This document shows positions 1,691 to 6,392 of a stretch of 64,000 nt of DNA, one piece after another. The translations under genes and the position numbers were made by a program. Every line of letters starts with the position of its first letter. Position 1 is the first letter of the stretch. The stretch spans positions 1,798,001 to 1,862,000 of the forward strand of contig OX597837.1 of assembly GCA_951406725.2 (NCBI GenBank). Reading direction: 5' to 3'. The stretch comes from Octopus vulgaris. Taxonomy: Eukaryota. Below the pieces are notes generated by a model, which saw nothing but the letters and a program-made list of their open reading frames with translations, ran no database searches and was not told the DNA's origin.

Positions 1691-1747
<57 letters not shown>

Positions 1748-1751
<4 letters not shown>

Positions 1752-2633
1752 CAACAATTGAGGGTAAAATTAATTAATTATTAATCAATTTCACCAAGTA
1801 TTCAGTATGTAAAGGGACCATTTAAGGCAAATTCAAATTATTACATTATATAAAAGGGCTTAGTAAAATAAATTACTTTGCCACATACTGAACTCATTAG
1901 AAATAGTAGCTAAAAAAACTTTTTTTAAAACTATTTCTAATACTTAAAGAAAATCTCTCTCATATAGTGTTTGCTCAATTCAACTCACGAAAGTATGGGG
2001 GTAAAGACATTAAAAAATCAAATGCAAAGGTTATTTGAGAACGTACGTTTCAAGATTAGTCAACTCGACATTTCTATCATCAGCTCAGAACTCCTTGGTT
2101 TGGATTTGAAAACACTGAAAGTGGGAGCATACCCTTTCGGCTTCTTATCGCTTCTGAAGATCTGCTCGAAACTAACAGTGCCAGCAAACCCAAAATATGC
2201 AAGCGAAGAATTTCTGCTCTCCCCTTTCCACCAGCGTGGGTTAAAATCAGTAAACACTATGCTTTTTCGGTAAAATCCGAAGCATTAAATAGAGAGAGAT
2301 GAATTATAATTTCAACAATTGAGGGTAAAATTAATTAATTATTAATCAATTTCACCAAGTATTCAGTATGTAAAGGGACCATTTAAGGCAAATTCAAATT
2401 ATTACATTATATAAAAGGGCTTAGTAAAATAAATTACTTTGATAATAACTCAAATAACCTTTGCATTTGATTTTTTAATGTCTTTACCCCCATACTTTCG
2501 TGAGTTGAATTGAGCAAACACTATATGAGAGAGATTTTCTTTAAGTATTAGAAATAGTTGTAAAAAACTTTTTTAGCTACTATTTCTAATGAGTTCAGTA
2601 TGTGGCAAAGTAATTTATTTTACTAAGCCCTTT

Positions 2634-2641
<8 letters not shown>
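1748..2641 (-). mobile_element. Hammerhead-containing non-autonomous retroelement (Penelope pLTR or retrozyme-like) with direct and inverted repeats, inserted in (TA)n
   Basis: 133-bp direct repeat 1748-1880 = 2309-2441 (period 561). Segment 2449-2641 is the near-perfect reverse complement of 1845-2039. (TA)n on both flanks. Hammerhead at 2036-2087. Confidence 0.8.
2036..2087 (-). ncRNA. Type I minimal hammerhead ribozyme, core intact
   Basis: Minus strand TGAG CTGATGA T-AGA-AAT-GTCG-AGT-TGAC-TAA-TCT-T GAA ACGTACGT T|CTCA. Palindromic stem III ACGTACGT, GUU triplet, 4-bp stem I. Predicted cut between 2040 and 2039. Confidence 0.82.
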
Positions 2642-2671
<30 letters not shown>

Positions 2672-6051: not shown

Positions 6052-6299
6052 AAATAAACACACACACGCACAAATAAACATACACACACATACATATATA
6101 TACCCATTTACTATTATTCAAGTGCATACGCACGCCTATACAACGTACATTGTGTGCATGCGCGCACACACATATATATATTTTAACATATGTACATATA
6201 TATATATATAAATTTTATTGGTACATATTTAAATGTGTATAGATATGTGTATATTCATGCATACATATGTGTAGGCACAGATGGATAGATAGATAGACG

Positions 6300-6392
<93 letters not shown>

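Follow-up and report, generated by a model that had tools for sequence, protein, structure and literature searches.

The window analysed here, a 64,000-nt stretch of Octopus vulgaris genomic DNA, contains one insertion of a tandem element that is young and non-coding and has a predicted hammerhead. The element has probably been inserted into (TA)n by a Penelope-like reverse transcriptase (RT)–endonuclease acting in trans, with both target strands primed at two fixed sites ~98 nt apart on one RNA. Two findings are worth following: the pairing of outer ends at the level of the family, and a chimera with 28S rRNA at one locus. The single coincidence highlighted in an earlier note on this DNA, an inverted arm that opens exactly at the predicted self-cleavage site, is real, yet carries little weight alone.

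Structure of the window copy

Positions in the 561-nt unit, prefixed ‘v’, run along the element's sense strand (the − strand of the window), with v1, window position 2039, the first base past the predicted cut. The two arms of a copy are called ‘far’ and ‘near’ according to their outer ends. Features of the window copy are as follows; the slash in GUU/C marks the predicted cut.

1714..1749: left (TA)n target, sharing a few TA bases with the far outer end
1748..2441, − strand: long (‘far’) arm, 694 nt; outer 3′ end at v292, runs through the cut site and ends at v160 of the next unit
1748..1880, − strand: direct repeat copy 1, exact 133 nt (partial tandem, pseudo-LTR-like)
2309..2441, − strand: direct repeat copy 2, exact 133 nt
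1835..1847, − strand: ‘near’ start site, TA-like patch v193–205, ~98 nt from the far site; the long arm continues past it
2027..2096, − strand: predicted type I hammerhead with extended stem I, drawn by hand
2039..2040, − strand: predicted cleavage site GUU/C, position inferred from the hammerhead consensus
2442..2448, + strand: 7-nt spacer ATAATAA, inversion junction
2449..2641, + strand: short (‘near’) arm, v1 to ~v193–195; begins exactly at the predicted cut
2640..2669: right (TA)n target

The direct repeat, exact over 133 nt and spaced by 561 nt, means that the − strand arm from 2441 to 1748 comprises 694 nt, or 1.24 units, as the earlier note had stated. The second arm (2449–2644) is the reverse complement of 2039 to 1842, with 97.5% identity over 198 nt. 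It opens exactly with CTCAAATAACC, directly after the spacer, and this start is exact because the preceding base is A where the unit has T; the claim that the inverted segment starts at the first base past the predicted cut, behind a non-matching spacer, is thereby confirmed, as is the (TA)n setting, which is present on both flanks. The spacer may be a slipped re-copy of adjacent unit sequence. A single A7-C-T7 quasi-palindrome contains all differences between the two arms (2562–2590 against 1913–1941), and these differences resemble a micro-inversion of a hairpin loop. The unit has 33% GC and a longest sense frame of 74 codons.

A young and abundant family

A 24-mer from the unit has 1,385 exact matches genome-wide (2.8 Gb, 227 contigs), and whole units, judged on the best 40 of 1,752 candidates, are often 97–100% identical. 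The first 100 matches of the 24-mer fell into 45 loci, which scales to at least ~620 loci and ~1,100 arms, a lower estimate. Besides the window copy, 83 loci were mapped, comprising these 45 unselected loci (chromosome 1) and 38 top matches. The two-armed form was in the majority (34/45 unselected loci), tandem arrays reached ~14 units, dispersed dimers to multimers occurred, and older subfamilies were 84–92% alike. The young family that the earlier note had suspected is thus recognisable as a high-copy, non-coding tandem retroelement with a predicted hammerhead and a Penelope-like insertion structure. A literature search found no description of it; the main text of an Octopus vulgaris repeat paper mentions hammerhead, retrozyme or ribozyme 0 times, although the repeat library and supplements of that paper may contain the consensus. 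None of the sequencing runs listed as containing the unit is an RNA run; contigs of four public runs cover the unit, a kind of evidence that cannot show ends, strand or level.

Rare variants were common to the units within an array and, in L117, L012/L054 and L078, to all units and both arms. Such homogeneity needs a monomer bottleneck followed by re-expansion, which fits a rolling circle, and fits end-to-end jumps or later homogenisation as well. Variant patterns along the tandem arrays had a period of 3 in L129 and of 2 in L117, a hint that circles were multimeric or that arrays expanded in blocks.

The v120–296 region recurs at 63–76% identity in other short non-coding families (L175:2505-2785; L211:5056-5345 and 6160-6392; L194:86-397). 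Two of these, L175 and L211, in which the region is shared at 67–73%, have the same near/far two-armed layout in (TA)n.

Outer ends pair one of each

Fifty-nine mapped loci consisted of two arms with their 3′ ends outward, of which five had an unclassed end, leaving 54 classifiable. An end at v288–297 (‘far’) was paired with one at v183–212 (‘near’) in 53/54, with one far/far locus and no near/near locus (p = 3 × 10⁻¹⁵ against a coin toss). The unselected chromosome-1 sample gave far/near in 32/34. Both sites are TA-like patches, ~98 nt apart, and the outer ends adjoin (TA)n in most of the loci shown. The two arms of a locus differed by a median of 0.2% over shared positions, compared with 1.9% between loci, and the sister arm was at least as close as the best other arm in 44/51 loci. 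Moreover, far arms stopped in excess at the near site: 12/74 ended at v185–212, whereas the intervals on either side had 4 and 3 (p = 0.007), although TA microhomology at v185–212 may explain some single-arm stops.

From these counts we infer two primers, one per target strand, which would start at two fixed sites on one RNA. The strict one-of-each pairing, the 98-nt spacing and the collision signal are this family's additions to published descriptions.

A predicted hammerhead with a conserved core

The − strand can be folded by hand into a type I hammerhead, with CUGAUGA at 2083–2077, GAAA at 2051–2048 and a predicted cut GUU/C between 2040 and 2039; its stem III is 2 bp long and lies inside the palindrome AACGUACGUU (2049–2040). 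The earlier note had described this core as intact, and it is indeed conserved: in the arms of sampled loci only 6/1,452 bases differed over 11 core positions (0.4%), compared with 3.3% in v297–499, while the free position N7 varied in 30/128 (23%). The proposed stems were 91% paired on 23 haplotypes, against 31–48% when slid. Rfam, however, reported no hammerhead family at the site, also at relaxed thresholds, its matches being microsatellite noise, and the usual G10.1:C11.1 pair at the base of stem II, described as highly conserved in PMC4209133, is U·U here and unpaired in 20/23 haplotypes. Stem covariation on the 23 haplotypes was not above shuffles (46/500 as high). The hammerhead is not the lowest-energy fold of the monomer (−8.0 against −11.1 kcal/mol); self-pairing of the stem III palindrome has −11.6 kcal/mol, the dimer-type design of PMC4209133. 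Self-cleavage by the predicted hammerhead is plausible on this modelling.

A natural variant exists in the L150/L033 subfamily, which has the cut triplet GUA in place of GUU and G·U at 10.1:11.1. L171:430-1020 is a further two-armed element that carries a hammerhead; its stem III palindrome, AACUCGAGUU, differs, and its cut triplet is again GUU. A metagenome scan with the hammerhead pattern gave 0 matches.

Inner ends at the predicted cut site

Junctions of other copies were largely scattered relative to the cut, an outcome that the earlier note had named as counting against its reading: only 1/142 inner ends in the 83 mapped loci lay within 2 nt of it. A genome-wide search for exact starts returned nine rows and yielded five junction events including the window copy (one with 4-nt microhomology, one counted twice), against 1.8–2.2 expected from a control over 39 positions (42 rows); without the window copy the excess had p = 0.11–0.18. 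Three of the rows (L033/L034, L039) were rejected as small deletions rather than junctions.

A denser census of v551–v6 gave 70 rows, of which 38 were kept, with classes assigned by hand. Twenty TA-flank rows were dropped, since TA overlap shifts the apparent start (the dropped L215 starts at v1), together with nine indel rows, and three duplicate palindrome rows were collapsed. In this census 16 arms ended at v560–v2 and 22 at the 13 other positions, or, filter-corrected, 5.8 ends per position against ~2.5 elsewhere, an excess of about twofold in a four-position interval picked after the data had been seen. Without the window copy the excess had p = 0.016, or 0.13 with five TCAAAT-microhomology junctions counted once. 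Both arms ended near the cut in 16/32 census events, compared with 12/59 background loci with close ends (p = 0.004); junctions also cluster at local hairpins in other parts of the unit, which could explain such double stops. The lean of ends at the cut towards near arms (near to far 12:3 against 12:11) was not significant (p = 0.08).

The earlier note's proposal that the breakpoint marks ribozyme processing is weakly supported, with a borderline, roughly twofold excess at the cut on one side and a single sampled end out of 142 on the other. At most about 1% of arms would keep a cut end, and the chances that the v1 start of the window copy records a ribozyme-cut RNA end are roughly even. Because the long arm continues past the cut site, its template was uncut or re-ligated there; the short arm stops at the cut, for which a linear 5′ end would be a better fit than a circle.

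Other rearrangements were seen at the same place. In L039, L235 and L247, deletions of 2, 1 and ~15 nt adjoin the cut on its 5′ side (3/8 census indel events), as would trimmed and re-ligated RNA ends, and L230 (G000:C2:97.11 Mb) has a same-strand v177-to-v1 join inside one arm, as would a shortened circle or a ligation product.

A 28S rRNA chimera

At one locus, L031 (G000:C4:165.63 Mb), a near arm and a far arm each start at v1 and are separated by 28S rRNA, with 471 nt in sense orientation on one side and ~55–60 nt of the same 3′ end on the other. Neither 28S join has microhomology. The arms are identical over 138 compared positions, and the two 28S copies differ at 2. This is a single event, found by selection on v1; in a census of GC-rich flanks at v547–v1, with L031 as the positive control, it was the sole foreign GC-rich join, beside one ordinary inversion. 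Since one and the same rare join was crossed in both cDNAs, the RNA had either been ligated beforehand or both enzymes jumped from an RNA 5′ end at v1 to the same acceptor, and either route needs an RNA end at the cut and one stretch copied twice. The blunt 28S joins would thus be the best sign of ribozyme cutting in vivo, and a rare genomic sign of cleavage plus ligation. Elsewhere in the genome, an rDNA array with a period of ~18.4 kb lies at G000:C20:23.96-24.07 Mb, and many dispersed 28S fragments occur on other chromosomes; L131 and L133 look rearranged.

The chief competing explanation keeps double priming as proposed and has the ribozyme leave no mark: templates would be uncut, read-through RNA, and the v1 start of the window copy would come from chance and from hairpin or microhomology hot spots near the palindromic stem III. 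By chance, ~1,100 arms over 561 positions give ~2 ends per position; the near absence of sampled ends at the cut agrees with this, palindrome junctions at v552 and v557 together with the TCAAAT junctions cover many of the nearby events, and uncut RNA is the main template in the in vitro system of Frangieh 2024 (PMC11167929). It does not account for the blunt 28S join at v1 in both arms of L031, for several v1 ends that lack microhomology (window copy, L237, L215, L038), or for the conservation of the hammerhead core, and we consider it unlikely.

Alternative routes to two arms

A single priming event could also be envisaged, along lines suggested for the inverted pLTRs and tails of Penelope: a palindrome would self-prime or fold back to give the inverted arm, and endonuclease resolution would set the other fixed end. 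Self-priming has been proposed in Arkhipova 2013 (PMC3846280) and endonuclease-mediated resolution of the tail in Craig 2021 (PMC8557442), and inner ends lay within 10 nt of each other in 9/59 loci, often at palindromes (shuffle mean 2.4, p = 0.0005). Palindromic junctions, however, are also produced when two same-sense cDNAs anneal. Inner ends were within 20 nt of each other in 12/59 loci and more than 20 nt apart in 47/59, and in 6/58 loci neither arm was contained in the other, so that fold-back cannot account for most loci; the excess of far-arm stops at the near site stands against it as well. We regard single priming as quite improbable.

The junction of the window copy was bridged by no contig of the four public runs, a gap that proves nothing, and it therefore stands on the assembly alone; an artefact is unlikely because the same layout occurs at dozens of independent loci. 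The notion that a satellite-like repeat was spread and inverted by DNA-level recombination or repair, or misassembled, with no RNA step, can point to that unbridged junction and to a non-coding unit (longest sense frame 74 codons), but is scarcely credible given dispersed loci whose two outer ends are fixed and lie in (TA)n, 5′ ends that vary, conservation of the ribozyme core and capture of a 28S fragment in sense orientation, all of which point to reverse transcription.

Search for a Penelope partner

The unit itself has no long ORF, and thus lacks the RT + GIY-YIG frame of autonomous Penelope-like elements. The genome does contain many copies of a young, abundant element with an intact 781-aa RT + GIY-YIG frame, whose CxxxxCxxC linker we take to be Neptune-type. 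The termini of this element lie in (TA)n at two sites separated by ~39 nt, and L203 has one of each. The 781-aa family showed no DNA similarity to the unit and no match to the hammerhead pattern, and the 781-aa protein had no match in the 64-kb window. Comparison of ORF-linked termini in 46 GIY-YIG loci (best 150 of 6,136 candidates scored) revealed no autonomous element that shares the unit. By tblastn, the flanks of 12 extended loci contained no Penelope ORF, and the only Penelope match beside any element locus was a short fragment near L059/L060.

In the 781-aa element, copies of which include L198:906-5672, L201:768-4468, L206 and L213 (G000 C16, C6, C5), another frame, up to 479 codons long, lies upstream of the first and overlaps it; this frame has no Pfam match. 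Two ORFs are unusual for the Penelope-type group; the hammerhead pattern was not found in the 456-nt terminal repeat of this element.

A model of insertion

In the model that we favour, insertion by double priming in trans, transcripts of tandem copies would be cut at GUU/C by paired hammerheads and may re-ligate into circles or multimers. The enzyme would nick both strands of (TA)n, one primer starting at v~292 and the other at v~195, aided by 2–5 nt of TA pairing. The two cDNAs would then be joined head to head through microhomology or a few added bases, with the RNA 5′ end usually lost; in ~1% of arms the cDNA would have run off a ribozyme-cut 5′ end, which was retained. In the window copy, the far cDNA would have passed one uncut site and reached 694 nt; the near cDNA, of ~195 nt, would, at the even chance given above, have run off the cut end.

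A broader reading can be offered tentatively, at a little under even confidence. The family would be a fossil record of Penelope insertion by a two-headed RT–endonuclease with its own fixed RNA site for each strand, always one of each, and able to copy the same stretch twice. L031 would then record a hammerhead cut in the germline, its 5′-OH product having been ligated to a 28S fragment before retrotransposition by the chemistry that would close retrozyme circles.

Comparison with known systems

LINE-1 twin priming, as reportedly set out by Ostertag and Kazazian in 2001, uses two primers on one RNA and yields an inversion joined by microhomology. In the octopus family, by contrast, the second primer would start at a fixed site, and most loci are two-armed.

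Endonuclease-bearing Penelope-like elements (PMC3846280, PMC8557442) share with the octopus family partial tandems, an adjoining inverted and 5′-truncated copy, a tail at one end, inner palindromes or microhomology, and microsatellite targets. The tail is ~98 nt in octopus, compared with 30–40 nt, often at one end only, in those elements, and the octopus family, unlike them, has no ORF; its 53/54 pairing was counted and is read as two primers. The route to tandem, inverted and tailed insertions is called undefined in PMC8557442. A young family of ~600 loci gives counts that bear on it: one-of-each start sites, one template per arm pair, and stalls where the primers meet.

The closest biochemical comparison is with Poseidon of Anolis carolinensis (PMC11167929), whose protein in vitro cleaves both target strands, extends each of them and begins synthesis at two adjacent internal RNA sites that define the tail; an AT-rich target and a hammerhead upstream of the start sites are shared as well. 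In the text of that report, cleavage is dispensable for insertion in vitro, start sites do not differ between strands, target homology is absent and no reads end at the cut. The octopus family, unlike Poseidon, has apparently one site per strand, both of them TA-like, and a small share of ends at the cut. The pairing counts thus make a concrete prediction for an existing in vitro assay, which reports no hammerhead role and no strand difference.

Foreign RNA on a 5′-OH end, then retrotransposed, is also the structure of U6/L1 chimeras, which RtcB makes by joining cyclic-phosphate and 5′-OH ends (Moldovan 2019, PMC6789731). In L031, as distinct from those chimeras, the 5′-OH would be a ribozyme product, and a fragment of 28S rRNA is the partner. 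In vitro, RtcB also closes retrozyme monomers into circles (Cervera and de la Pena 2020, PMC7229834).

Animal non-LTR retrozymes (PMC7229834; Li, Clavereau and Pollet 2026, bioRxiv 10.64898/2026.07.22.740005) are likewise non-coding, low-GC tandem units with a type I hammerhead each, dispersed as dimers to multimers, with a short palindromic stem III suiting dimer cleavage and with co-occurring Penelope-like elements. Of nine Xenopus retrozyme dimers, eight failed to cleave (bioRxiv 10.64898/2026.07.22.740005). The octopus unit, at 561 nt, is longer than the 170–400 nt of PMC7229834 and inside the 51–972 range of bioRxiv 10.64898/2026.07.22.740005. It differs from animal retrozymes in having no G10.1:C11.1 pair. 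Head-to-head two-arm insertions with fixed paired ends, present in most octopus loci, do not appear in the retrozyme text examined (‘inverted’ occurs 0 times in that of PMC7229834). The element would thus be an animal retrozyme-like, non-autonomous repeat of Penelope type that lacks G10.1:C11.1. The arguments so far for the proposal that retrozymes ride on Penelope enzymes have been co-occurrence and phylogeny; a tandem repeat with a hammerhead and Penelope-type ends supports it through the structure of the insertions themselves.
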